Notes: generated by a model not told the origin, from the sequence alone. Shown: positions 17,786 to 61,672, numbered from the stretch's first letter. The stretch: 64,000 bases of DNA from Acidobacteriota bacterium (GCA_022826825.1 JAJDUD010000008.1:11643-75642), one strand, 5' to 3'. Translations and numbers: made by a program.

Positions 17786-18826
17786 GTGACGGCGGCTAGG
17801 ATGCACCCATTGGACGTCGTTCTCAGCGTCGTGTTTTGTGTCCTTTTCCTTGCCGCAATCGGGCTCAGTTTCCGAAGCGGGTCCCGAGTCACTGTTGGGA
17901 CGCTAGTGGGTGGAGGATTGGTAGTCGTCGCCGTTGTTGTCCTGCCTCTCGAGAGCTTGGAATGGAGTCCTGACGGTGGAATCAGAGTCCAGACGCGGGG
18001 GCCACGAATGCGGAATGTTGAAATCTCTGTGCACAGCGTGGCGGAGGGTATTGACACGGAGCAGCTCCACGTGTTTCTTGTACCAGTTCAACATAAAGCA
18101 GTCACCCAGACTAGAAGCGGTGACACGTTCTTCTCGTTCGAAAATGTGCCAGAGGGAGCGTACAACGTGCTTCTAGCGGACCGCGCAGGGCACTTTCTGT
18201 TGGAACCTCGTACAGTGGCAGGCGACCCTACATTGGATTCAATTGACCGGTTCCCGCGGGGAATCAACGTAAGCGGGGAAGTAAGAGAACTTACAGGGCG
18301 TCCCCTGGCAAATGTCGCAGTTGGTCTGGGAGACAACGTCGCGTGGACCAGGGCCGATGGATCCTCTGGTATCGAGGGAGCCCAATCCGGCGAACGTCAA
18401 CTGCGGATACTAGGTCGTGCACAATCACTAGAGCCGATCGAGCTGGGATCAGAAGATGTGGATGCCGGAGTTCTCTATTGGCCCGACCCCGTGCGAGACG
18501 CCCAGTTTTGCGAAGAGATTCAAGTGACTGAGGATTCGGAAGGCGAGAAGAGGTGGGTATTGGTTGACCCGTCACAGACGTTTTCCCCGGACGTTGAACG
18601 TGTGTACTTCTATACACGTGTAGTGGGTGCTACAGCACCAACACAGATAATACACCGGTGGATTCATGACGACACACCTGTTGACGTCCCTCTTGATATC
18701 GAGAGCAACGATTACCGTACAAATAGTTCTCGTCAAATCGATCGAAAGCAAGGCGAGTGGAAAGTACAGGTATTGTCGAAGTCCGGAGATATTCTCGCAA
18801 CCAGGGCTTTCTGGGTTGGAGAATAG
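17786..18826 (+). CDS. membrane-anchored protein with a DUF2914-like C-terminal domain, inside a lower-GC islet
   Basis: N-terminal TM helix followed by beta-rich domains. The tail (VERVYFYTRVVGA...IIHRWIHDDTPV...GEWKVQVLSKSGDILATRAFWV) resembles the DUF2914 signature. GC is markedly lower than the flanks. Confidence 0.4.
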   Translation: MTAARMHPLDVVLSVVFCVLFLAAIGLSFRSGSRVTVGTLVGGGLVVVAVVVLPLESLEWSPDGGIRVQTRGPRMRNVEISVHSVAEGIDTEQLHVFLVPVQHKAVTQTRSGDTFFSFENVPEGAYNVLLADRAGHFLLEPRTVAGDPTLDSIDRFPRGINVSGEVRELTGRPLANVAVGLGDNVAWTRADGSSGIEGAQSGERQLRILGRAQSLEPIELGSEDVDAGVLYWPDPVRDAQFCEEIQVTEDSEGEKRWVLVDPSQTFSPDVERVYFYTRVVGATAPTQIIHRWIHDDTPVDVPLDIESNDYRTNSSRQIDRKQGEWKVQVLSKSGDILATRAFWVGE

Positions 18827-18919
18827 GTCAATCTATAACACGCACTGCTTGCCCACTAACCTACGAGTAGGCGGACTCCGGCGAACCACAAATGGCACGA
18901 CTCTGACACGGTCGCGCCC

Positions 18920-19333
18920 TTGTTTCCCACGATGAAGAAGCTACCATCGTGGGTGTTACCTACTCTGGTTGTAGGAGTGCTCCTTGTTCTGTCCTCCCTC
19001 TTGCTGGTGCGCCTATGGAGTTCGGTGGTCCTTCGGGCTCCATTTTTCGGTCGTTTGGAACCCGCCACGCTCTCGGCCCTTTCCCTCCAAGTCGTCTTAC
19101 TGTCCGCGTTCATTACGCTGTCGAGCTTCATGGTTGCCATGATCGCGTTTCTTGGCTACCGCCAGATCAAGGAGGCTGCGGTGCAGAAAGCCGTCACCGC
19201 AGCAGTGGATAAGTGCCTGGAGCGAACCGACACTGCCGTAAGTGAACGTCTGAATGAGGTTCTTGGATCCAGGGTAGAAACCGGGCCCTCTCCAGAACCA
19301 GAACTAACCGAAGAGGTCTCCGAGGAGGTCTAG
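18920..19333 (+). CDS. small two-TM membrane protein with an acidic coiled-coil tail; true start may be MKKLPSW at 18932
   Basis: Two hydrophobic helices, then a KEAAVQKAV...EEVSEEV tail. The stop lies 2 nt before the ImmA-like gene start. Confidence 0.4.
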   Translation: MFPTMKKLPSWVLPTLVVGVLLVLSSLLLVRLWSSVVLRAPFFGRLEPATLSALSLQVVLLSAFITLSSFMVAMIAFLGYRQIKEAAVQKAVTAAVDKCLERTDTAVSERLNEVLGSRVETGPSPEPELTEEVSEEV

Positions 19334-19335
19334 GG

Positions 19336-19818
19336 ATGGACAAGGAAGAATTGCTGGAAGTCATCCGGTCCCACCAGAAGGAGGCTCCGGTACCCGTCTT
19401 TAACATTGCGCGAGCGATGGGACTGACGGTACTTCGTGCCCGTTGGCCCGACGAGTGGCAGGACAAGATTTCTGGGCAAATACAACGAATCCCTGAGACA
19501 GATCAATACCGGATTCTTCTGAACGCGGCGCATCCACTAACCCGGCAACGGTTTACCTTGGCCCACGAGATCGCCCACTTCGTTCATCACAAGCATCTGA
19601 TCGGAGATGGCATCACTCACGACGCCCTGTACCGAAGTCCACTGTCCACACCGCTGGAGCGAGAAGCAAACCGGCTCGCCGGGAACATTCTGATGCCTTG
19701 GAGCTTGCTTTGGCCCAAGATGTTTAGAGCAGAAACGGACGTGCGGGAGTTAGCGGCGGAGTTCAAGGTTTCTCCAGTAGCAATGGCCATCCAGACCGGG
19801 ATTCCCTACGAGCCGTGA
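19336..19818 (+). CDS. ImmA/IrrE-family (M78) zinc metallopeptidase
   Basis: HEIAHFVHH HEXXH motif in the ImmA/IrrE context, ...EREANRLAGNILMP..., about 160 aa. Confidence 0.65.
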   Translation: MDKEELLEVIRSHQKEAPVPVFNIARAMGLTVLRARWPDEWQDKISGQIQRIPETDQYRILLNAAHPLTRQRFTLAHEIAHFVHHKHLIGDGITHDALYRSPLSTPLEREANRLAGNILMPWSLLWPKMFRAETDVRELAAEFKVSPVAMAIQTGIPYEP

Positions 19819-20340
19819 CCGCCTGAAGCTAGCCGCGAACTGCCGATTTCGGCACAAAAGCAAATGCGAGACCAGAAGATGTCGGCCTAGAAGGCAGCCT
19901 GCCGGGTTGATGCGATAGGTAGCGAGATCCTCGAACGGAGTCCGCAATGATCCTCTGAAGTCTTGCCCCGACGTCATGCGTGAACTGGCCTGCGGCTACT
20001 TGCTTCGCGCTTTCCACGGTTTGCGGGCTGCCCCTAGTGCCGCATCTAGGACACTTGGCGGATCCGTCGCTGCAGCCGTCAGCAATAACCTGACACCTAG
20101 AGCAAATCAACACTAGTGCTATGCCATCAGCCATTGCGCTCCGCCACCAGAGTCGTCATCACCTACCACCATGGAGAGGATCCCAAGAGAACCCTTCTGA
20201 TTGCGCGTCTCTAGCACGCTGAACGGGAGAAGTCAAACGCGCGACTGTCTAGTCCAGGTGCAGGGCCTCCACAGCGAGGCCTGTATAACGCCAGCGGTAA
20301 ACACCGCACTACGCTTCTTCCGGAAGGCATCAGGATTCTG

Positions 20341-22479
20341 CTATTTCGCTCGGCCGAGAGCGGGCCACAGCGTGACGACGAATCGCTCTTCACGGACCGG
20401 AATGCGCACACGGCCCCGCATTCCGTCGTAAAGCGCGTGTTCCGCGCCGGTGCTGCTCAACAAGACCTCCGGCAGGTCCGCATACACGAGGGCCAGCGCC
20501 CCATCTTCGGTCCCCGTGGGCAGGAGTTGGCCCATAAGCGCTCGCGCCTCTTCCGCGCTGATTACCTCCGGGCTGACCTCGCGGGCCTCGAGATGGAAGC
20601 GGCTTCCCGGGAACTGTTCCAGTTCGGCCACCACCGGGATCCCGGACGCGAGCAGGGGACGGAAGTTGCCCGGCACGGCGGCCACGATCTCGAAACCCGC
20701 ACGGGCGGCCCGCACCGTAGCCACCGTCTGGCCGGGATTCACGAGCGTCCCCGGCCTTACCCGTACGTCCGTCAGCACCCCACCCACCGGCACGATCAAC
20801 TGCCGTTCTTCAAGATCCGTCCTTGCCTGTTCGCTCGCGCCGCGCAGGGCCGCGAGCCCATTCCCCACCGTGGGATCCTCCGGGTTCCGCAACAGCCGCA
20901 CCAATGCATCCTCGTACTCGTGCTCTAGGCGCCGCACCTGTGCGAGTTCCGCGTGGTCGTAGAGCGTGCCGATGACGTCCCCCGGAACGACCTCCGTCTG
21001 GGGAGCGATGTGGATGGCCGCCACCGTGCCCGCCTCATTCGCCACCACAGGCACCCGTCCTTGGCTGTGGACGACCGCCATCCCCTCCGCGTACTCGGTG
21101 GCCGTTCCGAAGATCAGGAACGCCGCAAACGCGAGCAGCAGTGCCGCCATGCCGCCCACGATCCAAGATCCCCACCGCTCGGAAACGTTCAGGATGGCGC
21201 TCGGGCTCTCGGAGCGCCGCTGTTCCGCGATCGCTTCGGCGCGGAACACGGATGAGTCCACTCCGACCTCCCCTTGAAGCCGGTGGTATTCCCGAAGGAC
21301 AGCGAGCGGCGGAGCGAAGTCGCTGGCGAGCCGGCGCGCCGTATCCAACAGTTCCGGTCGGAGATGGTCGTGGGCGTCGGCCGCGTGGCACGCGAGCACC
21401 CCAAACACCGTCCCCGAATGGTCCCGGATGGGAACTGCCATCAGTCCGTGTCCGGCCCCTGGCACGAGATCCAACTCCGGATCGAAGAACACCGCGTCCT
21501 CCACGCGTTCTTCGAGCACCGCCACCCCAGACCGCGCGACGTAGGCGATCATGCCGAGCGCCGCGCTATCCGCGAACTCCTCCTGCTGCACGGCGTGGGG
21601 TCCCAGAAGAACCTCCGCCCAATCGTCGTAGGCGTACACCGTCGCCGTGATGTCCGGCATTCGCCGCTCCGCCTGAGCCGCCAAGTCCCGCAACGCGCTC
21701 TGCGCCGCACGTCTCTGTCCACGACTCGTGGCGTCGTACCACGCGAATGCCGGGAACCCGTCCTCGGTGTCCGGTCTCGGGTGAACGAGTTCGCGAAAGA
21801 CCCGCCGGAAGACAGCATTTTCGAGCGCCGCCACCGCCAGCGGGCCGAGGCGGTCCGGGTCCGGCCACCCACTGCATGCGAAGAAAACCTCGCCGGAACC
21901 GACGATGTCGCTCCAGCGGTCGGACATCACGCCCCCGCTTGCGACGAGAATCGGCCGAAGTCCGGGCAGTCGTCGGACGGTGGACCGCACCGACGCGACA
22001 TCGGGTGCCCGGTCTGGCGCACAGCCCAGCAGCAGGGCTCCCACGCTCTGCGGGTTCTGTACTTCCCGCGCGTGGACGATCTCGATCCCCTGTAGGGCCG
22101 GCGTCGCGCGACAGGGCTCGATCGCCCGTTCGTCATCCACGGCGAGGACCACCGGGACCCGGTTCGCAGCCGCGAGGGGAGAACTCGTCCAATCCTCCAC
22201 CAGCGTGAGAACCAACATCTGCACCGCGTTCTCACCACTGCCGTGCGCTGCACCCAGCCGCAGGTCCGCAACTACGGACCAAGCGCTGCCGTTGCCGGAA
22301 CCGAGACGGGCCGTGATCTCCATTCCTTCCATCGCCCCGTCGCGCACCATCACCGCCTCCGCATCCCGGACACACACCCACACCACGCCGGGACCCAGAC
22401 AACATACCCACGCGGGTAATGAAGCACCACCTGCTACCCGAAGCTGCGCAGGCCCTGAGACCCGGCGCCAGCCCTTCAC
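20341..22479 (-). CDS. fusion protein: N-terminal cytoplasmic region with a pseudo-receiver-like segment and a GAF domain, then a TM helix and a CvaA/LcnD/HlyD-type bacteriocin membrane-fusion domain
   Basis: The C-terminal 320 aa begin SVFRAEAIAEQRR...WIVGGMAALLLAFAAFLIFG, the classic N-terminus of CvaA/LcnD-type membrane fusion proteins, followed by a long periplasmic coiled-coil/beta region. The preceding ~390 aa include a GAF-like block (MIAYVARSGVAVLEERV...GLMAVPIRDHSGTVFGVLACH). 4-bp overlap with the upstream ABC gene. Confidence 0.6.
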   Translation of the reverse strand: MKGWRRVSGPAQLRVAGGASLPAWVCCLGPGVVWVCVRDAEAVMVRDGAMEGMEITARLGSGNGSAWSVVADLRLGAAHGSGENAVQMLVLTLVEDWTSSPLAAANRVPVVLAVDDERAIEPCRATPALQGIEIVHAREVQNPQSVGALLLGCAPDRAPDVASVRSTVRRLPGLRPILVASGGVMSDRWSDIVGSGEVFFACSGWPDPDRLGPLAVAALENAVFRRVFRELVHPRPDTEDGFPAFAWYDATSRGQRRAAQSALRDLAAQAERRMPDITATVYAYDDWAEVLLGPHAVQQEEFADSAALGMIAYVARSGVAVLEERVEDAVFFDPELDLVPGAGHGLMAVPIRDHSGTVFGVLACHAADAHDHLRPELLDTARRLASDFAPPLAVLREYHRLQGEVGVDSSVFRAEAIAEQRRSESPSAILNVSERWGSWIVGGMAALLLAFAAFLIFGTATEYAEGMAVVHSQGRVPVVANEAGTVAAIHIAPQTEVVPGDVIGTLYDHAELAQVRRLEHEYEDALVRLLRNPEDPTVGNGLAALRGASEQARTDLEERQLIVPVGGVLTDVRVRPGTLVNPGQTVATVRAARAGFEIVAAVPGNFRPLLASGIPVVAELEQFPGSRFHLEAREVSPEVISAEEARALMGQLLPTGTEDGALALVYADLPEVLLSSTGAEHALYDGMRGRVRIPVREERFVVTLWPALGRAK

Positions 22480-24710
22480 GAATCGTCTCCTGTAGTTCCG
22501 CCCTGCTCAGGCGCCCGTACGAGCGACGCGTATTCACCGTCCAGACTCAGCAGGTCTCCGTGTCTGCCCTCCTCAACGAGATGTCCCTCCTTCAGGACGA
22601 AGATACGGTCCGCGTTGCGGATTGTGTTCAGCCGCTGGGCGATCACGATCCTCGTGCAAGCCAGCCGCGCCAGCCGCGCCTGGATCTTCGCCTCCAGCTT
22701 CGTGTCCAGATTGCTCGTCGCTTCGTCCAGAATCAACACCGGAGGCCCGGTGGCCACCGCCCGCGCCAGCGCCAGACGCTGCATCTGTCCTCCCGAAAGG
22801 AGGAACCCGCCATCGTAGAGCATCGTGTCGTAACCCAGAGGCAGTTTCGCGATGTCATCGTGTATGGAGGCAAGTCGCGCGGCCTCAATCACCTCCGCGA
22901 GCGACATGTCCGGGTTGCCGAGCGCGATGTTCTCGCGAACAGTATCCGCCGCATACCAGTCAGTCTGTGTCACCGTGCCGATCCTGCGACGCACCTCCCG
23001 AAGGTCCAGGGTGGCGAGATCGGTTCCCGAGTACAACACGTGCCCGTTCGTGGGTTCGTAGAGTCCGAGCAACAGTTTCGCCACCGTGGACTTCCCCGCC
23101 CCCGACGGCCCGACGAACGCAACAAATTCCCCCGGGTGGATCGTGAAGGAAACGTCCTGCAAGATGTCCGGGCCCGAATCGCTGTAGCGAAACGTAACGT
23201 GCTGCATCGAGACCGTCCGTGGGTCCACATCCGTCCCAGACCCACGCACCCGACGCTCCGGTTCTGTCTCGATCACGTCCTCAATCCGGTCCACGTAGCT
23301 ACCGAGCAGGTAGATGGACGAAATCGTTCCCACTAGTTTCGACAGCGGTCCCAGGAACCCCATCGCGAAGGCGTTCATCGCCAACATGACCCCAAGGGTC
23401 ATGTGGCCGTCCAGGACGCGCATTGCCCCAACGATGAGAATCAGCATGCCGCCCACGCCCGAGAGCGCACCAGTGATGGCCCCCACGGTCGCGTTGAGAC
23501 GGTTCTGCTCGATCCCGATGTTCAACTCCTTCACGAACAGGTCCGTCCATTTCCGGGCCACCTCGCGCTCCGCGCCAATGGATTTGAGCGCCTCCATTCC
23601 CGAGAGCATCCGCACTTGGTAGCTCCGTGCCTCGGCCTGCCGTTGTATCGACTCCGAAACGAGTTCGCGCAGACGAATTCGCGTCACCGCGAACACCGTG
23701 ACCCGCAGCACGCCGAGCAGCACCACGAGCCCGGCGACCACCACGTCCGTCAGCAGCATCAGGACCAGGTACGACAGCACGAACAGCCCGTCGAGAACCG
23801 CGGAGAATGCCGTTGAGGTCAGCGCACTGCGGATCTGCACATGGCTGTTCATCCGCAGCATCAGGTCACCCGACGAGCGGTTCTGGAGATATGAGAACGG
23901 CAGGTCCATCAGCCGTTCAACGAACGATACGGTCAGCCGGGCGTCAATTCGCGACATCACCTCCACCGCAAGCCGCGAACGTACGAAGGAGAACAGCGTC
24001 GAGAACCCGGCGATCCCGATCAGCGCAATGGCCACCGTCAGCAGCAGTCCCTGGTCTTCCCGAGGTACGATTCGGTCCACTAGTAACGCCGTGAACAGCG
24101 GAATTGCCGTTCCGAGCACCTGGATCGCTGCCGACATCGCGAGAAGCTGCGGCAGGTGTCCGGAGCGCAGGATGACTCGCGCGTAATCACGCAGGACACC
24201 GCGTCCACCGGCCTTTTGCGTCCGGAACGTGTCCGTCGGCCACAACTCCACCGCCACCCCGGTGAAGTTGCGGCTGACCTCCTCCCAGGTCACGATCCGG
24301 CGGCCCGCCGCCGGATCCATTACCCGGATCCCCCGTTTCACGACCCGGTCCAGCACCACGAAGTGGCTAAACCGCCAGTGCAGGATCGCGCCGCGCTGCA
24401 GGCGGCGCAGATCCTCGATCGCATCCACCCGCAGGCCCCGTCCAGCGAGCCCGTGCTGCTCGGCGAGATGCAGCAGATCCGCGGCGTTTGTCCCATCGCG
24501 GCCCGCGGTCAGGTGGTCGCGGAGCGTATGTACGGGAATGTGTTTGCCGTGGAACGCCAGCACGCTCGCCAGGCCGGCGAGACCGCACTCCGTCGCGCCG
24601 GTCTGCTGGACCACCGGCACGGACCGTGGGCGACGGAGCGACCCGATCCCCGTGACCCGCGGTAGCGAGCCCAGGAACGACGGACGCGAGGGCTCAGCCA
24701 TCGGTGTCAC
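22476..24710 (-). CDS. lanT: peptidase-C39-domain ABC transporter (double-glycine leader-cleaving peptide exporter, LanT/CvaB-like)
   Basis: N-terminal C39 domain with catalytic Cys (QTGATECGLAGLASVLAFHG), a six-TM ABC exporter domain, Walker A GPSGAGKST, signature LSGGQMQR and Walker B ILDEATS. Confidence 0.85.
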   Translation of the reverse strand: MTPMAEPSRPSFLGSLPRVTGIGSLRRPRSVPVVQQTGATECGLAGLASVLAFHGKHIPVHTLRDHLTAGRDGTNAADLLHLAEQHGLAGRGLRVDAIEDLRRLQRGAILHWRFSHFVVLDRVVKRGIRVMDPAAGRRIVTWEEVSRNFTGVAVELWPTDTFRTQKAGGRGVLRDYARVILRSGHLPQLLAMSAAIQVLGTAIPLFTALLVDRIVPREDQGLLLTVAIALIGIAGFSTLFSFVRSRLAVEVMSRIDARLTVSFVERLMDLPFSYLQNRSSGDLMLRMNSHVQIRSALTSTAFSAVLDGLFVLSYLVLMLLTDVVVAGLVVLLGVLRVTVFAVTRIRLRELVSESIQRQAEARSYQVRMLSGMEALKSIGAEREVARKWTDLFVKELNIGIEQNRLNATVGAITGALSGVGGMLILIVGAMRVLDGHMTLGVMLAMNAFAMGFLGPLSKLVGTISSIYLLGSYVDRIEDVIETEPERRVRGSGTDVDPRTVSMQHVTFRYSDSGPDILQDVSFTIHPGEFVAFVGPSGAGKSTVAKLLLGLYEPTNGHVLYSGTDLATLDLREVRRRIGTVTQTDWYAADTVRENIALGNPDMSLAEVIEAARLASIHDDIAKLPLGYDTMLYDGGFLLSGGQMQRLALARAVATGPPVLILDEATSNLDTKLEAKIQARLARLACTRIVIAQRLNTIRNADRIFVLKEGHLVEEGRHGDLLSLDGEYASLVRAPEQGGTTGDDS

Positions 24711-24740
24711 CTGTCGTCTTCCGGATCGGAGCGTCGGCGA

Positions 24741-25688
24741 TCACTCTTCGAGAGATCCGGAACAGTCGAGAGCTAGCTCACCTTCGGCCAGTTGCGGAAC
24801 GGCCAGCACGCGCACCGGAGTTCCGGCCGGGAGTTCGTCCGAGCACAGGAGCGCCTCAAAGGTGTGCAGGAGCGTGCGAGGATCCAGTTCGGGAGAGGCG
24901 TGTATCACGAACCCGAGCACCGGCTCATGGTCCTCGAAGGTCACGGTGATCGGCGCGCCGGCAGAGAGTCCGATGGTCGCCTCGGGCGGCGCCGCGAAGC
25001 GAACGTGCCATTCGCCCGCTTCGATCGCCACCACGGGCGCCCCCCGCGTGTCGTACATCCCAGGCGAGCCGTACACCTGGTCCACCACGCCGCCTAGCGG
25101 TGCGCGCAGCGTCGCCTTGGCCGCTTCGGCGCGCGCCTGTTCCGCAGCCGTTCGCGCAGCCCCAAGTCGCGCCTCGGCGGACTCCAGACGCGCCCGGGAC
25201 ACCTCCACTTCGGCCTCCACTTCCTCGAGTTGTTCCGTAGAGAACAGCTCGGAGCGTCCCTTGCGCCGCGTGTAACGGCTGGCGGCCTGCTCCATCTCCA
25301 CCTGTGCAACCCGCAGCGACGCCTCCACTTCGGCGACTGCTGCCTGCGCCACTGCAAGAGTCCGGTCCACCGATTCAGAGTCGAACCGCGCTACTGGTTG
25401 GCCCTCCTTTACCTCGTCCCCCGGCTGTACGAACCGCTCCAGTAACCGGGCGTCAAACGGCGCCGGCACAACAATCCGCCGCTGCCGTACCACGACCCCG
25501 ACATGACCGTAGTTCGCGGGAAGCAGGCCCGGGACTGGCCTACCCACACTCACTCGTCGCTGCGACCCGGATGGCACCGGACCCGGACGCCGCCGTTCCG
25601 GTTCGCTGCCGTCGCCACAACCGACCCAGGCAGCGAAGGCGACCAATCCCGTCGCCAGAAACGCGCCATGTGCTGCTCTGTAGCTCAC
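24741..25688 (-). CDS. HlyD/RND-type periplasmic adaptor lipoprotein
   Basis: GTG start gives a signal with lipobox AAWVGCG. Coiled-coil hairpin, then ATLRAPLGGVVD, a typical adaptor beta-barrel motif. The start overlaps the lanB stop by 4 bp. Confidence 0.6.
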   Translation of the reverse strand: MSYRAAHGAFLATGLVAFAAWVGCGDGSEPERRRPGPVPSGSQRRVSVGRPVPGLLPANYGHVGVVVRQRRIVVPAPFDARLLERFVQPGDEVKEGQPVARFDSESVDRTLAVAQAAVAEVEASLRVAQVEMEQAASRYTRRKGRSELFSTEQLEEVEAEVEVSRARLESAEARLGAARTAAEQARAEAAKATLRAPLGGVVDQVYGSPGMYDTRGAPVVAIEAGEWHVRFAAPPEATIGLSAGAPITVTFEDHEPVLGFVIHASPELDPRTLLHTFEALLCSDELPAGTPVRVLAVPQLAEGELALDCSGSLEE

Positions 25689-28600
25689 CGTTTCGCGCGC
25701 GCCACCAACGAACGATAGGTCCGGCTCAGGAAATCGTAAAGCACCAACTCGTGCGCTCGCGCCGACATGGGAAACAGCCGGTTCGCGTGCATGTGGGTCA
25801 GGGTTTGCAGCAGTTCTTCGAGTGGGCATTCGAGGTCACCAGACTCCGCCAAGTCCCGGAACTGTCGGACTACCTCCTTGGTGTCTTCGGACCGCTGCTG
25901 CAGGACGGCATCGAATCCGGCGAATCGGGAGTCATCGTCCGGGTATCCGGTAACCGCCGCTTGGATATCCCGGCGCTCCGCCCGCAGCCGTCTCGCTAGG
26001 CGCCGCCGTACACTGGGGCCCACTCCGAACTCCTGTCCGAACGACTCCCGCGCCCCGGCAACAACCTGGTTTCTTTCTCCGTAGTCCAGTCCGAAGTCTG
26101 CAAGCAACCGGTCAAAACCCATCGCCACTGCCTTCCACCGGAGGACTTCATCCTCCACCCCGTCGAGCACTCCGACGACCTGGAGCGCCGCCACACTGTC
26201 CGCCCGAAACCACGCTTCTGCCAGTTCGATCCCCCGCCCCCCGCCATAGCGTTCGACCTCGCGCACGTAGGTGTCGAGGCTCACGCGATGGACGGCACCG
26301 GTGGCCAAGAACGGCTGGAGGAGCGCCGACATCCGTTCTTCCAGCGCCCGACGAGCATCCGGCCCGCCTCGAAACCGGACGCGCAAATGGTGTTCCGGGT
26401 CTCCGTACCGGATGAAAAACCACGGCTCACCCGTCGCAGTGGCTCCGTGGAGCGCTGCCAGCGGCGCGACGACCTCGCGGAGCAGCCGATCCGCCGTGCC
26501 AGCGGCAGCGTAGAGCTTGTAGTAGAGCCACTCGTCTCCCGGGATGAAGGCCCGGGAAGCGATTGGTGCCGTCACGTTCCGCTGCTTTACGCCGTCTTCC
26601 CTGACCGAGGGCGCGGCCCGCTGCCTGCGCACGAGCGGAAGGATGAACTCGTTCCGGTAAGTCCCCTCGGGGCCGCTAACGCAGCCTTCCAGATCCTCAG
26701 CGAGCGTCTCCTCTAGAACCAGGGTGGGTCGGCGCGCCCCATGATCCGCCAGCACCGCCACGCACATCGGGTTGTCCAGATCCAGCAGCAGACGGTTCTC
26801 CCCATCGACGAGACGAACGAAACGCGGAAGCTTCAGCTCCCGAACCAGGGCCAACAGTGCGTCCTCACGGGCGGCGGGCTTCTTCGCCTTCGCAATGGCT
26901 TTGTACTCCGGACGATTGCGTCCCACCATCCAGCGGGCAAGCGCGTAAATGGCACGACCCCGGGTCACTCGCGGCAGGAACGGAAGTCCGTTCAGCACCC
27001 CCCAGTTCCAGCTGAACCCCGGCGCCGTCCCGTCGTTCTGGAGCGCGCATAGAAACCGATACATCCCGGAACTACGTCGATAGTTGTGGGCTGAGGTAAG
27101 GCGTGGGCGCACGATCCTGCCGTCCTGACGCGAGCGCAGCCGAAAACTGCTACCCTCCAGACTCAGCAGCAGATCGTCCACGGTCAGCCGCTTCGGACCG
27201 GTGAGCCGCGAGTTACCGCTACAACTCAACTCGATGTCGCGGACATGAGGTCGTCGCACGACATTGCCGACTCTACCCTCCGGTGTGTGCACGATTTCGG
27301 CATAGACCACCCCGGGTTCCAGCGCCTCCTCATCTCGAAGGTGGCCGCGCACCCGCTCGAGCAACACGGGGTCGAGATCGCAGAACCTTCCCAGCAACCG
27401 GCCACCCGACGGGCCGAAGCCGCCGTGATAGAGGATCCGATATGCGCCGCTCTGCACGGCCTCCTCAGAGGCAGCCACTAGATCAAAGTGGAGTGCCACG
27501 GCCGCTGGCAGAGGGCTCTGAACCGAGGTCGCGAGGCGTGTGAGCAGGTCATCGTCCAGTTCGAGACTCGCTGGGGCTTCACCCCGGAGGTCCAGGAGGC
27601 GCTCCATCAGCGCGTCCGGCACGCCCTGCTGAGGGCTTTTTCCGCGGTTGCCCTCTGCCCCGATGTTGAGGCCGGCAAGGAGCGGCGATCCTGACTGACG
27701 TGGTCGCAGATCCGGACCAGGCACACCGAGTCCCCGTTCCGGATCGAAAACCTCTGCTAGCGGAACCTCGCGTGTCTCGTACCGCTCCCGGAAGCGGCTC
27801 TTGAGGTCACGCAACGGATCCGGTAACCGCGTCATCAGGCGGTGTAACGTGTCGGCACCGCGAAGCACCTCGTCGACGACCTCCTCGGCGAGTTGCAACT
27901 CTTCGGTTTCCTTGAACATGTCCACCTGGAGGAGCCGCTCGGTTTTCTTCTGACCGAGAGGCCCGGTCCACACCGCGTTCACCGCCGCGTACGCCTCGGG
28001 TGGTGCCGCCACTCCATGCTCGTCGAGCTGGTCGAGCGCTTCGCGTAGCTGCCGGACCGGAGTGGCTGACTCGGACAGCGCCTCGCTCGCAGCGAGAGCC
28101 TGAAGGATCTGGTCCAGCGGATCGCTACCTACGACCGCAGGCACCAGCTCCGGCACGAGCACCTGCGACTCGATGAGGTCGTCAAGGTACTCGTCGATGT
28201 CGTCCGAGTTCACATCCGCATCAGTGATGGCGAGCGTCAACGCGGCATGTAATCCAGCCAGCGGCATCGCTTTCGCGGACCGCCGCTCCAAGGCGGCCGA
28301 AAGCGCTTCGTCATTCTCGAGAAACGCCATCTCGTGCCGGTTTTCGGGACCGCGCTGTCGCGCTTCCACATACTGGTACCCGCCCGCAATGGCCGCGATC
28401 GTGTCGTTGGGGCGGTAACGGAGATTCTTCCGGACTCCTTGTTGCCTCAGGAGGCTACCGACCAACTTGGCCACCTGCGCTTGGTCAAGTGCTGAGCGAC
28501 GCCGGTAACGGTCGCGCCCAGCAAGTCTCAGGCGCGTCAGTTCGCCTACGTTCCCCACGGATACACCGGCGAACAGGCCGAATGGCGTGCATCGGTCGCA

Positions 28601-28930
28601 CATCCGCGCGAAGTACTGGACGAGCGCTCGTTCCATCCGCGCCCGCCGCCGCGTAGGTGCTTGGTCGCCCAACCCGGACAGGCGCTCCGCGAGCACTGGA
28701 CTGGCGACCCGCAGCGCATCGGCCGCGTGCGGCAACGCCAGAGCCTCCACGAGAGTTCGCCGCAGCCGGTTCCTCGTGCCTGCTCCGTCACCCGCCGCAG
28801 GGGTTGCAGTTTGGCCACTGGCTCCCCAAACAGCAAAAGTGGCGGTGGGCAGTAAGGGCGTCCGTAGCACGAAAAACCCGGATGGCCGATAGCTGTCGGC
28901 GAAACCCGATGCCCCCGTCTCAGCTGTCAC
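25685..28930 (-). CDS. lanB: class I lanthipeptide dehydratase LanB (glutamylation plus elimination domains)
   Basis: 1081 aa. N-terminal SGFFVLRTPLLP is the canonical LanB opening. The C-terminal WFFIRYGDPEHHLRVRFRG matches the SpaB_C elimination domain. Confidence 0.85.
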   Translation of the reverse strand: MTAETGASGFADSYRPSGFFVLRTPLLPTATFAVWGASGQTATPAAGDGAGTRNRLRRTLVEALALPHAADALRVASPVLAERLSGLGDQAPTRRRARMERALVQYFARMCDRCTPFGLFAGVSVGNVGELTRLRLAGRDRYRRRSALDQAQVAKLVGSLLRQQGVRKNLRYRPNDTIAAIAGGYQYVEARQRGPENRHEMAFLENDEALSAALERRSAKAMPLAGLHAALTLAITDADVNSDDIDEYLDDLIESQVLVPELVPAVVGSDPLDQILQALAASEALSESATPVRQLREALDQLDEHGVAAPPEAYAAVNAVWTGPLGQKKTERLLQVDMFKETEELQLAEEVVDEVLRGADTLHRLMTRLPDPLRDLKSRFRERYETREVPLAEVFDPERGLGVPGPDLRPRQSGSPLLAGLNIGAEGNRGKSPQQGVPDALMERLLDLRGEAPASLELDDDLLTRLATSVQSPLPAAVALHFDLVAASEEAVQSGAYRILYHGGFGPSGGRLLGRFCDLDPVLLERVRGHLRDEEALEPGVVYAEIVHTPEGRVGNVVRRPHVRDIELSCSGNSRLTGPKRLTVDDLLLSLEGSSFRLRSRQDGRIVRPRLTSAHNYRRSSGMYRFLCALQNDGTAPGFSWNWGVLNGLPFLPRVTRGRAIYALARWMVGRNRPEYKAIAKAKKPAAREDALLALVRELKLPRFVRLVDGENRLLLDLDNPMCVAVLADHGARRPTLVLEETLAEDLEGCVSGPEGTYRNEFILPLVRRQRAAPSVREDGVKQRNVTAPIASRAFIPGDEWLYYKLYAAAGTADRLLREVVAPLAALHGATATGEPWFFIRYGDPEHHLRVRFRGGPDARRALEERMSALLQPFLATGAVHRVSLDTYVREVERYGGGRGIELAEAWFRADSVAALQVVGVLDGVEDEVLRWKAVAMGFDRLLADFGLDYGERNQVVAGARESFGQEFGVGPSVRRRLARRLRAERRDIQAAVTGYPDDDSRFAGFDAVLQQRSEDTKEVVRQFRDLAESGDLECPLEELLQTLTHMHANRLFPMSARAHELVLYDFLSRTYRSLVARAKR

Positions 28931-28963: not shown

Positions 28964-30214
28964 TCAGGATAAGAGCAACAGGCGGTCCCACTTCGGCTCG
29001 ATGTCCGTCGTCCCGGTCAGTAGTGCTAGCCCAACGCCCGCCGAGCCAGTGAGAAACGACCCATCATCTACCCAGCCTTGGCGATTCCCGCCTACATCAC
29101 CCCACATGCGGTAACCACCCACTCCCTGGTTTGGTCGCCACCAGTTCAGGGTCGCATCAACCCAACCCCTTGCCGCGTTTGCGAACTCCGGTTCATTGTC
29201 AGTGCGTGCAAGTCGATAGAAGATCTGGGCGTTTCCCGCCGCCCCATGGCAGAGTCCGGCGTCTCGAATCCAGGCCTCGCCGGGTCGGACGCGAGCGCAG
29301 GCAAGAGCCAAGGTCCGCGCCCACTCCACGCCCTCCTGATCCCCAATTGCTTTCGCCGCCTCGAATGCCACCGCTGACGCACCAAGTGGGCCGTAGCACC
29401 ATGCCATTCGGCGACTGACCTCGGGTTCAACGCCCGGCGCAATCCATGATGGCAACGACGCTTCGGTTGGGTCTGACTTGATTGCCCTGAGCCATCGCAA
29501 ACTATCCCGAAGCAAGGGCTCGGCTCGATCCGGCTCGACCCCGAAGGAACATAGCTTCCCCAGAAGCCCACACACCCCTGGCACGCCGTGTGCTACACCC
29601 AAGTTGTAGTAGCCAGCGGGTGCCAGTTTGCGCTGCCAAGCGGGCAGAAAGTCCGCCACCGTGAACCATGTCGTCCCTTCCTTAGTCTCGACCGCCATGC
29701 GCTCAAGCGCCTCAAGAACCAAGCCAAGGCCGCGGACTGCGGAGTCGCGAGGTAGTCGTTCTACGAAATAGACGCCGACACCAACCACGCCGCTGATCAG
29801 GTCGTAGACCCGCTGGTCCGACTGCCGTGCCAAGGCTTCTGCCGCTAACCGGTCCACATGGGTTCCCACGGCATCATCCTCAGCGTCCAAATGAGTCGTA
29901 AGCCAGCCTGGACCCGCCCAGCCACCGTACAGACCCAACTGGGTGGACCTTTGGATTCGATCAAGGTCCGCATCAATCAGCGTTGAGCATGCGTTGGAGT
30001 CATCTTGAAACACCTCCGCCATGTCGGCGTAGGCATGGAAGAGAGCGGCAAGCCCACCGGGGCGACGACGGAATCCGAAGGGTACATTGGATTCTGGTTC
30101 GACCGGTCGCCGCGCCATATTGACAAGCGCTTCCCCTATACCTTTCACAATCAACCTTGCGTTTGCTTTCGATCCAGTGGGCGAGAACGTCTCGCCGGTA
30201 GGCCGTTGGGTCAT
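28964..30214 (-). CDS. lanC: lanthionine cyclase LanC
   Basis: 416 aa carrying the three LanC zinc-ligand motifs GVAHGVPG, WCYGPLG and GLCHGAAGN. Confidence 0.85.
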   Translation of the reverse strand: MTQRPTGETFSPTGSKANARLIVKGIGEALVNMARRPVEPESNVPFGFRRRPGGLAALFHAYADMAEVFQDDSNACSTLIDADLDRIQRSTQLGLYGGWAGPGWLTTHLDAEDDAVGTHVDRLAAEALARQSDQRVYDLISGVVGVGVYFVERLPRDSAVRGLGLVLEALERMAVETKEGTTWFTVADFLPAWQRKLAPAGYYNLGVAHGVPGVCGLLGKLCSFGVEPDRAEPLLRDSLRWLRAIKSDPTEASLPSWIAPGVEPEVSRRMAWCYGPLGASAVAFEAAKAIGDQEGVEWARTLALACARVRPGEAWIRDAGLCHGAAGNAQIFYRLARTDNEPEFANAARGWVDATLNWWRPNQGVGGYRMWGDVGGNRQGWVDDGSFLTGSAGVGLALLTGTTDIEPKWDRLLLLS

Positions 30215-30689
30215 GTTCTTTGACGGCTGTATTGTTCCCGTTAACCTGAAGGACCGGTTTGACTGGCCGCGCTCTCCGGCCGATCAGGCTCAGTCACACG
30301 GCACATCGAATACAAGGTTCAGCTACGCACACCAAGAGAGTCACGAGCGCAGGGTCGGCGACCGCTGCCGGGCCAGCTACGAGCGTAGAACAAACGTAAT
30401 CCCAGCGGTTTATCGGTGTCCGGAGCAAGAGTAGCGATTCAGCGAAGAACACGCACGGTCACTCCGGTTACCGGCGTACGTGTCACCTTAAGGGCGCGCA
30501 CAAGTTCATTCGCGCCTACTACCCGTAGGTAAGTGTGAGCGCACGTGGTGCTTTGCCCGTATCGCTTGTCTCCTCGTAGCCTGCCCGTGGCCTGTTGCTC
30601 TCGGATTCACCTCGTTGACCAGAACTGGATAGTCAAGCGAGCGCCGACAAGACATCAACGCGCTAAACAGCTCTGCCAGGAACCCCCGG

Positions 30690-31028
30690 TCAGCAACCTT
30701 GGTTGTTTTCCGAGTCGCAAAGACCACAGCCAGTGCCACACGAGTAACCGCATGTTGCATCGCATGTGGCATTGCACGACGCTTGACCACAGTTCGTGTC
30801 GCAGGTGGCGGTAGGGCAATCACAAGTACCCTGGCACGCCGAGACGTTGTCACAAGTATCCCCCACGACGGTCTGGGGCTCGACCCTACAGTCACCGATG
30901 CCATAGGTACATCGATCAGTATTTCGTGGTTGAGTTGGGAGGGGGTCATCGCCACCAGCGACACCGGCTAGCCGATCTTGGCTGAGCGATACGAGATTAC
31001 GTTTCTTCAGACGTAGTTTCTTCTTCAT
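30690..31028 (-). CDS. lanA: lanthipeptide precursor LanA: double-glycine leader plus an 86-aa Cys/Thr/Ser-rich core
   Basis: Internal ATG gives MKKKLRLKKRNLVSLSQDRLAGVAGG followed by DDPLPTQPRNTDRCTYGIGDCRV...CGTGCGLCDSENNQGC. The leader fits LSxx(E)LxxVxGG. The core has 15 Cys and 16 Ser/Thr, with recurring TCD/ATC units. Local GC is lower than the genome background. Confidence 0.7.
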   Translation of the reverse strand: MKKKLRLKKRNLVSLSQDRLAGVAGGDDPLPTQPRNTDRCTYGIGDCRVEPQTVVGDTCDNVSACQGTCDCPTATCDTNCGQASCNATCDATCGYSCGTGCGLCDSENNQGC

Positions 31029-31131: not shown

Positions 31132-34100
31132 TCAGAACGTGAACTTGGTCATGAACTGGAGCGTGCGGGGGAACCCGCTGCTGCACTGGATCTGACCGAA
31201 GTTGCTGTTCCCAACGACGGTGCGGGGGCCGCACCAGTTGGGCGAGTTGAAGAGGTTCAGCATCTCGAAGCGCAGGTTCAGGTTCACATCGCTGAAGATC
31301 GTCGTCGTCTTGTCGAGAGCGACATCCCAAGTGTGGAGCACTGGCGTGCGAACGGTGTCCGTGGTGTGCGGACCGGAGCCAAGCACGAAACCATCCGTCT
31401 GGGCGACATTGCCCGGGCTCAGGTAGTTCAGGTGGCTGCCAGACGGGTTGCCGCCGCCGGACACGCCGCCGCCGCTCGGGCGCTGGTGATCGAAGCCGTA
31501 CGCAGCGAGCGGATTAGAACTCTGCTTCAGAGTCAGCGGGAACCCGCTCCGCAGGATGGTCTGCGTGGAGAGCGACCAGCCGCTGAAGATGGGGTTGTCA
31601 CCTGGTATCCGGTAGTTGAGAGCGATGTTGAACTGGTGCGGAACGTGAATCCGGGATGGACCGTAATCGGCGTCCAACACCGAACACTTCCCGGTAGCAC
31701 AATCATCGGGAGTGTTGAAGATGGTGCTTTCCTCATCCGCGAGTCGGGTATTGCTCTCGTAAATGTTGTCGTTGTGGATCGCCATCGTGTAGTTGATCCG
31801 GGCGCCCCAACTGTCGCGGAACCGCTTTTCGAACTCGATCCGGGCCGAGTTGTACAGCGACTTGCCGGCGCTGACGTGGCGGGCCAGTACGTTCCGGAAG
31901 TGGGGGAACGGCCGGAGCAACTGCCCCAGCGGAAGCGTCTCGGCGCCCGCGAACGAACCGAACCGGGAGTCGCCGTAGAACGGGTTGGGATACTGATCGT
32001 TCAAACGGTCGCCAAGCGCCACGTACTGATCCGCGAGCTGGTTGATGTTGATCACCGAGTTGTTCGTGCCCCCGATCGGGAGGTCTGCGCCGGCACTGCC
32101 TACATAACCGACCTTGAACGCAAGGTCGCGGCCGATGTCGCGCTGGATGTCGAGCGACCACTTGTGGATGTAGGGGGAGGCCCGGTGTTGTTCGTTGAAA
32201 TAGACGTTGCCGCCGATGTTCTGGAACCGGCCTTTCGCGTTGCCGACCGGGTTGTCGATGCCGTTCGGGAACGGGTTCGCAACGGTGGCCTCCGGCGGGG
32301 TCCTTCCGTCGAGGCTGGTAGCGATTGAAGTCACCGCGGTATAGCCGAACGTCCCGACATCGGACGCGCCCACGCCGCTTGGAATCGCGTAGGGCGCCCA
32401 GAAGGTCGCATACCCGCCCCGAATCACTGTCTCCGGGTTCAACGTATAGGCAAAGCCGATCCGGGGACCGATCTTGATTCCAGGGGGGTCCCACTGGTGG
32501 GTTGGGGCGCCGTCGATTCCGGCATACATAAGGCCGCCGCGGAGCGGGAAGCCGGGGAGCGAGCCTTCGATGGCCGGATCGAGCCCAACCTGGATCGGGA
32601 ATGGGTTCGTGCGGTCCCAACCGACGGCGAAACCGTTGTCATCCTCCATCAGGCCGCTCTCGTGCTCAAGGCGAAGCCCCAGGTTCAACACCAGGTTTGC
32701 GCTGGGGCGCCAGTCGTCCTGGACGAAGACGCCGTAGTAGTTGATGAAGACGTCGGCGGGTTCCGCGACGGTCGCCTGTCCGCCGGACGGAATGCCCAGC
32801 AACATGTCGGCGAGCGCATTGCCGGAGGCCGCGTCCGGGGAATCCGGGTTGGGGCCGCGGGTGAAGCTTCGGTCGAAGCTCAACTGGAGCCCATTGTTGA
32901 AGCGGACCGAGTGGAGTCCCATGCGCCGGAACTGAACCCCGTACTTGACGGTGTGGTTCCCGAGGAACTGCGAGAAGGTGCCGTTGACCTCCCGCGAAGT
33001 CCATTGCACATCGGTGTTGGACCACGAACCGTGCGTCGACCCGCCGTCGCCATACTCCTCGATACTGACGCTCGGGAACTGGCCGTCATAGCCTTCCTGG
33101 CCATAGATGGAATTGATGAAGCCGCCCTGGAATCCCAGACCGCTGAACGCGCTCTGGTCGAACACCGGGTTCGAGTTCGAGTCGTTGAAGAAGGTCTGGC
33201 CGTAGCGGAGAGTCAGTACCGACGTGTCGCCGGTGATGAAGGTGTTGTTGAAGGCAACGGCGTGAACATCGCGCCCCAGCGAGGCGGCGCCGATGCCGTA
33301 GGCGGGGTGGGTCTCCGCGTTCAGAAGATCCTTGTAGTGGCCGAACGCCGGCTCCTCCGAGGTGTAGTAAAGGTAGGTCAGGGACGACTGCCAGGCCTCC
33401 GAGAAGGTATGGCTCAGGTTTCCGGTGAGTTGCCGGGCCTGCGTGCGCTGAATCCCGGAGGCTGCGATATCGCCGCCCGGACCCAGTTCGGTGAGGACCC
33501 TCGCCAACGAGGAACCCGCCGGATCGATCATGTGGGCCGGAATGACGTTGCCCGGGAAAGGACGCCGATTGCCGTTCGCGTCGAGATCGAACGGGTTGTA
33601 GATCGTGACTCCGCTCGCGGAGAAGTCGCCAGCAGCTTCAGCAGGAGTCGGCAGCGTGATCGTTACGTTCGAGGCCTGGTCGTCGTTGTAACCCTCGCCA
33701 GAAACCCAGAAGAACGTGCGGTCGCGGAAGATCGGGCCTCCGAATGACCCGCCGAGCAGGATGTAGGGGCGTTCGCTGATGTCCGAATCGGACAGCTTGC
33801 CAGCAGCCACATCCTGGGCTGTGTGGTAGTAGTACTCCCGCAGGAACTGACCGACCTTGCTGGGCCGGAATTGGTGAAGGGCGCTGCCCGCCCAGGCGTT
33901 GGTCCCGGTGCGGTGAATCACGTTGAAGACGCCGCCGCCGGTGCGGCCCATCTCGGCGTCGTAGGTGTTGATCTGGACCTTCATCTCCTGCACCGCCTCG
34001 AACACCGGGATGATGACCGTGCGGTTCCGGAGGTCGGTCGTGGAGACGCCGTCCACGGTGTAGTTGTTGCCGCGGAGCGGCCCACCACCGAGCGAGAGGA

Positions 34101-34644: not shown

Positions 34645-35017
34645 GAGTCCCTCCTGAGTTCGTGTGAGTCCATGAGCTTGACGCCCGAGCGTGCGGGCGG
34701 TCCAGAACATTTGGTCTGCGAAGAGCCGAAACGACAAATCCACGCGATATGTCGCGGAACTTTAGGCGGTTCGGACCTGTTTCGCCAGTGCCACGGGTGG
34801 CAAAGGTCGGGCCGCCAACGCAACAACTGCCCCGATGCGTCACAAGTTCCTGTTTTTATTGACTCTTGCGCCCCTCCGCGGCGCCCCTCGGCCCGCGGGC
34901 GGCGGAGCGTGAGAATTCAAGAAATCGGACGGGATACGACGAATCAGATTCCTTCGGCCGCACTCGAAATATGACGGATGTCACAGACCGCGCGGTACGG
35001 ACCCGCGGCCTTCCCGG

Positions 35018-61345: not shown

Positions 61346-61672
61346 CTTCCTTATGTCCTACCTAGTTTCCAAGGTACGTTCCAACGTTAGGAGCTTTCGA
61401 TTCGGAAAGTCAAACGTGAAACCGAAGGCGGTAACCCATTGATTTTAGGTTCTCTTTTGCAGTCCTGATTGGCACTCGAACGGCCTCTTGGGTTCGCCGC
61501 GCGCGGCGGCACTCCGGGACTCGAGCCTGTGGGCCGGTCGCCGAATTCCGGTATCCAAAGGCCACCCAAGCGCGCGTCCGCCGCGTCCTTTCCCTCCCGC
61601 GGAACGGGCGCATCGGAGTGGTCCGTTATTTTTGCGGCTCTCGTTCGGCGTCTGCTATGTTGCGGACGGGGT

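Follow-up and report, generated by a model that had tools for sequence, protein, structure and literature searches.

This report concerns a 64,000-nucleotide stretch of DNA from an Acidobacteriota bacterium (GCA_022826825.1 JAJDUD010000008.1:11643-75642; ~70% G+C), whose source lineage is marine and sponge-associated. We refer to this whole stretch as 'the window', and positions are counted from its first letter. A gene cluster located entirely on the minus strand of the window encodes the lanthipeptide enzymes LanB and LanC, a C39-peptidase ATP-binding cassette (ABC) exporter (PCAT) and two different periplasmic adaptors, termed here adaptor 1 (Ad1) and adaptor 2 (Ad2). We judge it probable that lanC-lanB-ad1-pcat-ad2, with lanA ahead, form one operon through which a diderm member of the Acidobacteriota makes and exports a class I lanthipeptide, and that the last three genes specify a single export machine in which the two adaptors have different roles and the outer-membrane channel is encoded elsewhere. 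The export set with its two adaptors is real and conserved, and its distribution extends far beyond the window; the co-occurrence of its three genes supports a functional tie between both adaptors and the C39-ABC exporter.

Reading along the minus strand, the LanA precursor (112 aa; 30690-31028), recognised from its open reading frame (ORF) and sequence, precedes the LanC cyclase (416 aa; 28964-30214; Pfam LANC_like, 108 bits), which also occurs as an identical protein in contigs of ENA and Logan. These are followed by the LanB dehydratase (1081-aa ORF; 25685-28930; Lant_dehydr_N, 482 bits, and Lant_dehydr_C, 208 bits), the lipoprotein-type periplasmic adaptor Ad1 (315 aa; 24741-25688), the PCAT (744-aa ORF; 22476-24710; Pfam C39, ABC_membrane and ABC_tran) and finally Ad2 (712 aa; 20341-22479), which combines a sensor-like module, a transmembrane (TM) helix and a short-hairpin adaptor. 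The stop codon of LanB overlaps the GTG start of Ad1 (25688) in the sequence GTGA, and the same overlap joins the stop codon of the ABC exporter to the GTG start of Ad2. Such overlaps are the usual sign of translational coupling. Scans for promoters and terminators between 19.8 and 31.4 kb gave nothing over the shuffled background. The spacer between LanA and LanC (30215-30689) is 475 nt long and has no convincing ORF, and a simple scan of it found no terminator-like site standing out. Spacers at this position are far shorter in the orthologous loci.

The order LanC-LanB-Ad1-ABC-Ad2 is the same in all eight orthologous loci that span the cassette (L003, L004, L005, L007, L008, L009, L012 and L015), among which Ad2 is 51-80% identical. 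Both adaptor families are discrete, with scores above 270 bits inside the family and below 80 bits outside it, and there are source contigs common to the two. When the cytoplasmic module of Ad2 was searched with phmmer against 1.84 billion representatives, only ~15 remote matches were obtained; seven of the ten that were checked are GAF-HlyD or PilZ-HlyD fusions, whereas among the remaining three one carries nothing but GAF domains and two match no Pfam model. A C39-ABC gene comes directly next in each of the four remote loci where the downstream gene is readable. Three other gene orders are seen in remote loci. In L016, LanB comes after the ABC and a divergently transcribed gene encodes a 327-aa lipoprotein adaptor that is 36% identical to Ad1 (E 1e-28). 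An Ad1-type gene is placed after the ABC in L020, and in L021 such a gene faces a sensor-less 320-aa Ad2-type gene together with a C39-ABC.

A metagenome scan with an Ad2 alignment yielded 80 loci, some of them near-duplicates, such that the following counts are not fully independent: a C39 domain or an ABC comes directly after the Ad2-type gene in 64 of the 80, and an Ad1-type gene, whether upstream, downstream or divergent, is present in 17 of the 24 loci that are informative on both sides. The sensor-less Ad2-type family comprises at least 257 clusters, and its named sources are Myxococcota metagenome-assembled genomes in which the annotation is always a generic 'HlyD/efflux adaptor'. Many soil bacteria carry this set of three export genes as well. 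Given that the co-occurrence survives changes in gene order across phyla, we regard the set as a functional unit, and not as a product of inherited synteny.

The neighbours of the module vary. A Ser/Thr protein kinase gene adjoins the Ad1-type adaptor in several soil loci (L044:7439-8956, L052:2707-4461 and L062:7473-8957), and radical SAM/SPASM enzymes are found beside the two-adaptor PCAT module elsewhere (5 of 37 ORFs). The module therefore serves several classes of peptides that are made on ribosomes and modified after translation (RiPPs).

The PCAT matches Peptidase_C39 (96.9 bits, aa 31-160), ABC_membrane (111.8 bits, aa 192-456) and ABC_tran (116 bits, aa 517-666), all above cut-off. 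Its domain order is that of the PCAT/AMS family, with an N-terminal C39 domain, a six-helix exporter transmembrane domain and a nucleotide-binding domain, and it aligns at full length with the solved transporters PCAT1 (4RY2; E 5e-101) and ComA. Gene calls begin 3 aa after the start of the ORF. In the C39 domain (24231-24620, identified by Pfam and a motif check), the residues Q36, C42, H116 and D132 are kept in all nine orthologues compared, the catalytic assignments being made by motif position and not by residue-by-residue alignment to PCAT1. This intact set predicts an active peptidase-containing exporter, unlike the HlyB type with its dead C39-like domain, and a putative cognate substrate with a double-glycine leader is encoded in the same cluster. 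Curated models match at scores below their cut-offs, including TIGR03796 NHLM_micro_ABC1 (541.8 bits, cut-off 853.3) and TIGR01193 bacteriocin_ABC (335.6 bits, cut-off 523.85).

The Walker A, Q-loop, signature and Walker B motifs of the PCAT are all intact. ABC exporters normally carry a histidine in the H-loop, but the corresponding codon here (22635-22637) specifies Gln692 ('VIAQRLNTI'), as it does in nine of nine Acidobacteriota orthologues, whereas the histidine is present (AHRLST) in remote PCATs that belong to this type of module. In a PCAT homodimer this glutamine would be present at both ATPase sites. In one orthologous locus (L005:7170-7688), two tandem 85-aa ORFs separate Ad1 from the PCAT. 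One of them, if not both, is similar to the N-terminus of the PCAT (residues 7-77, 50% identity), and the pair look like duplicated fragments of the stretch that precedes and enters the C39 domain.

The LanA precursor consists of the leader MKKKLRLKKRNLVSLSQDRLAGVAGG, which ends in ...LAGVAGG and is predicted to be cleaved after GG, and a core of 86 aa that is rich in Cys, Thr and Asp. Its scores against the NCBIfam models lant_leader_L1a (17.7 bits) and lant_leader_L1b (17.4 bits) fall just under the cut-offs. The leader also matches the LxLxKx5L...GG motif of Walker et al. 2020, who described class I LanAs with such leaders along with C39 proteases encoded in the cluster (PMC7268733). Further double-glycine-leader examples from Gram-negative bacteria are Ped15, the thalassomonasins and the viridisins, in addition to the related pinensin cluster (PMC9680876). 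Thus, the combination of class I LanBC enzymes, a GG leader and a C39 peptidase is already known for diderms and is ordinary there, and the absence of a LanP protease is to be expected. A canonical class I cluster (LanABTCP) has LanP and a peptidase-less LanT, but here the transporter carries a C39 domain with an intact active site, and Pfam scans of the window's ORFs, which cover 88.5% of its length and leave 654 nt as the largest unscanned gap, found no Peptidase_S8 domain. A preliminary description of this DNA had correctly noted that LanP is missing. It had also presented the pairing of LanBC with double-glycine/C39 processing as the less common arrangement, which is not borne out for diderms, given the documented cases and the fit of LanA to their leader motif.

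GG- or GA-leader peptides rich in Cys and Thr occupy the same position in six of the eight orthologous loci (L003, L005, L007, L008, L012 and L015), and some of these loci have two LanAs. The cores span ~40-86 aa (in the window 30690-30950, minus strand; elsewhere L003:1843-2073, L005:795-1091, L007:1906-2121 and L008:1483-2063) and consist largely of T-C-P-x-T-C or [ST]-C-[DG] repeats, with 9-13 Cys, acidic residues and a C-terminal Cys. An IS110 transposase gene is located upstream of the LanAs in L008.

Ad1 scores 34.3 bits against HlyD_3, for which the gathering score is 22.2. Homologues are 310-322 aa long, which supports the GTG start at 25688 and hence a protein of 315 aa. An alignment of 22 homologues reveals a signal peptide and lipobox at aa 1-24 (25617-25688; ...AAWVG-C24), wherein the sequence MSYRAAHGAFLATGLVAFAAWVG-C provides a hydrophobic stretch and then Cys24, conserved in at least 90%. 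The lipobox was called by reading the sequence, and its position -3 is occupied by an atypical W. The protein may be retained in the inner membrane or sorted to the outer membrane. An AlphaFold2 (AF2) model with a pLDDT confidence of 79 has a disordered linker of ~35 residues, a lipoyl domain, a 40+40-residue alpha-hairpin and a beta-barrel, after which the protein stops with no membrane-proximal domain. Given that a PCAT has no periplasmic domain, this ending fits such a partner. The hairpin helices (aa 105-144 and 151-190; 25119-25376) were delimited with DSSP on the model and have pLDDT values of 94-98. Foldseek comparisons yield E values of 1e-15 to 1e-17 with MacA, AcrA, MexA and TMexC, the best being MacA (3fpp, TM-score normalised to target 0.77; 5nik_D). 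Scores against the resistance-nodulation-division (RND)-type adaptor model TIGR01730 (69.7 bits, cut-off 94.9) and the MacA equivalog NF008606 (43.2 bits, cut-off 342) are both below cut-off. The preliminary description had called this gene an RND/HlyD-type adaptor lipoprotein upstream of the exporter, with the lipobox WVGC, and the HlyD_3 score, the conserved Cys24 and the MacA-like model uphold that identification. It had also allowed that the ORF at 24741-25688 might turn out not to be an adaptor, and both the HlyD_3 score and the fold recognised by Foldseek are those of an adaptor.

Ad2 is also a genuine adaptor, although of a different build. Its HlyD_3 match (27 bits) likewise exceeds the gathering score and is confined to the C-terminus. 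Only the C-terminal ~250 residues (about 466-712) make up the adaptor part, whereas residues 1-436 form a sensor-like cytoplasmic module. Within this module, aa 1-95 (22195-22479) are modelled by AF2 as a PilZ-like beta-barrel (strands with pLDDT ~90), and Pfam recognises PilZ in the aligned region of one remote homologue only, P0125. The segment includes 'DGAMEG', which loosely fits (D/N)x(S/A)xxG, and lacks RxxxR, for which reason we do not infer cyclic di-GMP binding. Next comes a receiver-like alpha/beta domain (aa 108-230; 21790-22158) that departs from true receivers, in which beta3 ends with a phospho-acceptor Asp and a Lys is conserved; the phospho-acceptor is missing here ('GALLLGC'). 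A GAF-like domain (aa 253-403; 21271-21723) is followed by a hydrophobic helix in the AF2 model that we assign as the TM helix (aa 437-457; 21109-21171), and which is kept in both homologue alignments, including the one with the remote relatives. The predicted periplasmic part (aa 466-712; 20344-21084) has a lipoyl domain, a hairpin whose helices span only 23 and 16 residues (509-531 and 542-557) and a beta-barrel, and the hairpin is entirely deleted in the remote homologues P0122, P0129 and P0120.

Foldseek matches EmrA, MacA, MexA and ZneB at E ~1e-6 with the Ad2 model, whose periplasmic part has only moderate confidence (pLDDT 50-85). Scores against TIGR01843 (type I secretion HlyD; 23.4 bits, cut-off 208.65) and TIGR03794 NHLM_micro_HlyD (25.8 bits, cut-off 156.2) are below cut-off. 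The topology in the AF2 model is nevertheless that of CvaA and HlyD, with a cytoplasmic N-terminus, a single TM helix and a periplasmic adaptor. The cytoplasmic part of HlyD and CvaA measures tens of residues, compared with ~436 aa in Ad2. Some gene calls give Ad2 only 669 aa, but we reject the notion that the longer ORF is a start-codon artefact, in that homologues of 704-724 aa share the conserved residues 1-43 and the GTG start overlaps the stop of the ABC gene. A CvaA-like fusion protein downstream of the exporter had been anticipated in the preliminary description. The gene, lying just beyond the interval given there (22476-25688), does encode an adaptor with CvaA topology, but the 436-aa module with its PilZ-, receiver- and GAF-like domains, the protein's most unusual part, had been overlooked, and with it two thirds of the protein.

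On the basis of these features, we propose that LanB and LanC would modify the precursor under the guidance of its leader, which the C39 domain of the ABC exporter would then cut after Gly-Gly, and that the ABC dimer would carry the core peptide over the inner membrane. In the periplasm, the two non-equivalent adaptors would work with the pump, possibly as a mixed adaptor ring on the PCAT dimer. Ad2, anchored by its TM helix beside the pump, would couple to it, and its cytoplasmic module could link export to a small-molecule signal or to the state of the cargo or pump. Ad1, lipid-anchored via its flexible linker of ~35 residues, would extend a MacA-like 40+40 hairpin that appears long enough for an outer-membrane channel, most simply a TolC-family protein encoded elsewhere. 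In the models, the two adaptors look complementary, one having a long hairpin and the other a short or absent one. The suggested division of labour is drawn by analogy from TriA and TriB of the TriABC-OpmH pump, whose two periplasmic adaptor proteins have non-equivalent roles (PMC13328181, PMC8277102, PMC4446572); one mainly stabilises the contact with the outer-membrane factor, whereas the other activates the pump (PMC13328181). We infer a physical hetero-oligomer, which the preliminary description had also suggested, a capacity for ligand sensing and the identity of the channel.

Regarding that channel, no OEP/TolC domain was found in the Pfam scans that covered 88.5% of the window, and no TolC-type protein is present among 47 neighbouring ORFs (380-620 aa) from 27 related loci. 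We considered these ORFs as TolC-like candidates and rejected them, as they encode Ser/Thr or histidine kinases, radical SAM enzymes, AAA ATPases or proteins without an assignment. The CvaAB, HlyBD and MacAB systems of Escherichia coli all use a TolC encoded at an unlinked site. Thus, the earlier observation that the cluster lacks an outer-membrane channel holds for the window and for the loci compared, and the accompanying proposal of a TolC-like channel encoded elsewhere stands as the simplest reading.

Several points weigh against an obligate two-adaptor, TolC-docking machine and should be kept in view. A regular-expression search for R-x3-L-x6-S, which we take to be the TolC-docking signature at the hairpin tips of MacA, AcrA and HlyD, gave no match at the tips of Ad1 or Ad2, although this absence is weak evidence. 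The tip motif RYxRR...FSxEQL that Ad1 has in common with its L016 counterpart was rejected as a family signature, since the Ad1-type family at large does not conserve it, nor is the lipid anchor universal in that family. Sensing by Ad2 is speculative, given PilZ-like and receiver-like domains without canonical ligand or phosphorylation motifs. The conserved H-loop glutamine of the PCAT might confer atypical ATPase behaviour. Finally, 7 of the 24 informative metagenome loci (~30%), plus L017 and L019, have no detectable Ad1-type gene, and so Ad2 and the PCAT are apparently workable alone or with an unlinked partner.

This last observation lends itself to the explanation that Ad1 and Ad2 are alternatives, each building a homo-oligomeric ring of its own on one and the same PCAT, perhaps to dock different channels or to act under different conditions, without any hetero-oligomer. 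Ad2 can evidently suffice at the loci just mentioned, and the lipoyl and beta-barrel domains needed for oligomerising are present in both adaptors. We nonetheless consider this arrangement unlikely. The short or absent hairpins of the Ad2-type proteins are hard to square with bridging to an outer-membrane channel alone, and co-occurrence regardless of gene order, combined with translational coupling in one operon, fits co-assembly better. Furthermore, TriABC, the sole characterised pump with two periplasmic adaptor proteins, requires both of them (PMC13328181).

Somewhat less likely still is a role for Ad1 outside the exporter, either in self-protection or as part of another efflux pump (MacB- or RND-type) encoded elsewhere, much as LanFEG and LanI serve as immunity genes. 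The nearest curated matches of Ad1 are to RND and MacA adaptors and not to the HlyD of type I secretion systems (T1SS), its best fold match is MacA, and dedicated immunity genes were not seen in the cassette. However, the eight orthologous cassettes contain no second transporter, and none is found beside the Ad1-type genes in remote loci. The membrane-proximal domain missing from Ad1 is the part with which adaptors touch MacB and RND pumps at their periplasmic domains, and its absence suits a PCAT instead. Ad1-type genes also stay with Ad2 and the PCAT through changes in gene order.

Another candidate for the outer-membrane step is a gene adjacent to the cluster. An outer-membrane barrel of the TonB-dependent type (31132-34743, minus strand; CarboxypepD_reg plus OMP_b-brl_4, Pfam 461 bits; called as a 1170-aa gene at 31132-34644) is co-directional with LanA and lies ~100 nt upstream of it. 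It is not a TolC-type channel, and its membership in the cluster is uncertain. CarboxypepD_reg/OMP_b-brl_4 barrels are also found upstream of LanA in L003:1-1570, L005:1-680, L007:3-1553 and L009:2-1420, and together the upstream barrels represent at least three paralogue groups, with those of L003, L005 and L007 being 68-71% identical to one another and those of the window and L009 each distinct. The window encodes a second OMP_b-brl_4 barrel (58394-61357, minus strand), near a GWxTD/TPR protein (61469-63748, plus strand), and two such barrels in 64 kb indicate that the family is common in this genome. Even so, the recurrence of this position in five loci exceeds chance and may reflect export, re-uptake or an insertion hot spot.

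We consider it improbable that this barrel conducts the peptide across the outer membrane in the manner of Oar, or re-imports it. Its repeated placement before LanA, in non-orthologous forms, is far above expectation for a family seen twice in a 64-kb window with ~40 large ORFs scanned, and there is no linked TolC gene in the loci examined. Secretion that depends on a TonB-dependent transporter also has a precedent, as Myxococcus Oar is needed for the secretion of PopC (PMC6434023). However, the barrels are non-orthologous between near relatives, to the extent that those of the window and L007 differ while the corresponding Ad2 proteins are 80% identical, and no barrel is present upstream in L004, L008 or L015, or in any of the remote loci. 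In the close relative L011 (4592-11233) the flanking DAO oxidoreductase gene and the barrel are kept and are directly followed by Ad2 residues 302-712 only, the LanA-to-PCAT portion being deleted. The barrel has therefore persisted there, at 87% identity, after deletion of the cluster down to a truncated Ad2. In addition, we know of no adaptor that docks on a TonB-dependent transporter.

The least credible alternative, delivery only to the periplasm or cell envelope by adaptors that form no trans-envelope duct, would accommodate the missing linked channel gene, the short Ad2 hairpin and the lack of a canonical hairpin-tip motif, but we judge it very improbable because periplasmic adaptors typify trans-envelope machines, the hairpin of Ad1 is as long as that of MacA in a model of very high confidence there, and the diderm PCATs CvaB and RaxB export into the medium via TolC-type channels.

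The DNA around the cluster is lower in G+C, with a fraction of 0.55-0.66 over roughly 18-34 kb of the window. Downstream of Ad2 (17786-20340), a stretch with a G+C fraction of 0.55 carries genes for an M78 (ImmA/IrrE-type) peptidase and a DUF2914 protein. The DNA 3' of Ad2 is unlike in each locus, and defence-like or mobile genes are abundant there, including AAA_16 ATPase arrays (L003:12229-22121), DUF4062/HATPase_c_4 with a PhdYeFM antitoxin (L004:12203-13766) and HEPN plus GmrSD (L005:15758-17491).

The single export machine with two adaptors that we favour shares features with several known systems. As with CvaB/CvaA/TolC and other diderm PCATs, a C39 half-transporter predicted to cleave a double-glycine leader is adjacent to a TM-anchored HlyD-type adaptor, and the TolC-type channel would be unlinked. 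In contrast to these systems, a second, MacA-like lipoprotein adaptor is co-encoded here and the cargo is modified by LanBC, while Ad2 differs from CvaA by its 436-aa cytoplasmic module with PilZ-, receiver- and GAF-like domains and by having only a short hairpin. TriABC-OpmH of Pseudomonas aeruginosa likewise has two different adaptors in an operon with a single inner-membrane transporter. That transporter is an RND trimer, whereas the present one, an ABC/PCAT dimer, has no periplasmic domain, and the adaptors described here diverge far more from each other in their anchors (lipid versus TM), their hairpins (long versus short) and the sensor module possessed by one of them. MacAB-TolC provides the protein on which the Ad1 model superposes best, and both machines would be ABC-driven tripartite assemblies. 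However, Ad1 has no membrane-proximal domain and reaches only 43 of the 342 bits required by the MacA model, and the ABC protein is a PCAT with the type IV exporter fold, not a MacB.

The NHLP/Nif11 cassette (TIGR03794 HlyD with TIGR03796/03797 ABCs) likewise exports GG-leader RiPPs in diderms, and of the curated models its own score best with the ABC (541.8 bits), while Ad2 is matched weakly (25.8 bits). All of these scores are below cut-offs, and that cassette has two ABCs with one adaptor, whereas the present set has one ABC with two adaptors. Class I clusters of Bacteroidota and Proteobacteria (those for the pinensins, Ped15, the thalassomonasins and the viridisins) share LanB, LanC, LxLxKx5L...GG leaders and C39 proteases with the cluster (PMC7268733, PMC9680876). 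The differences are that the host here belongs to the Acidobacteriota and that its cores have far greater length and Cys content, and the two-adaptor export set may be a further one. GAF domains fused to HlyD-type adaptors have also been noted in the GAF-HlyD-biotin_lipoyl proteins of SecA_DEAD/Peptidase_M50 loci, for which a regulatory or sensory role was proposed (PMC4452313). This likeness is one of domain make-up, and those loci have no ABC transporter, whereas here a C39-ABC adjoins the fusion.

In a limited search of the literature, none of the reviews and papers was found to describe a two-adaptor PCAT, and the three-gene export set does not seem to have been described before as a unit. 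A broader proposal, to which we give only tentative credence, is that a PCAT with Ad1-type and Ad2-type partners constitutes a widespread class of diderm exporters (Acidobacteriota, Myxococcota and others) built on an obligate heteromeric two-adaptor ring, one branch of which would be gated through the PilZ/pseudo-receiver/GAF module by a nucleotide messenger or by the cargo.

If both adaptors are indeed needed, this would be, to our knowledge, the first two-adaptor exporter of the ABC type (PCAT/T1SS-like), as the reviews consulted cite only the RND pump TriABC. If our interpretation is true, pump-engaging and channel-engaging roles would be borne by clearly different proteins in a natural system. 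The sensor-fused Ad2 suggests that RiPP export can be regulated post-translationally, at the transporter itself. The heterologous production of the many cryptic lanthipeptides from Gram-negative bacteria may need all three export genes together with a compatible outer-membrane channel.

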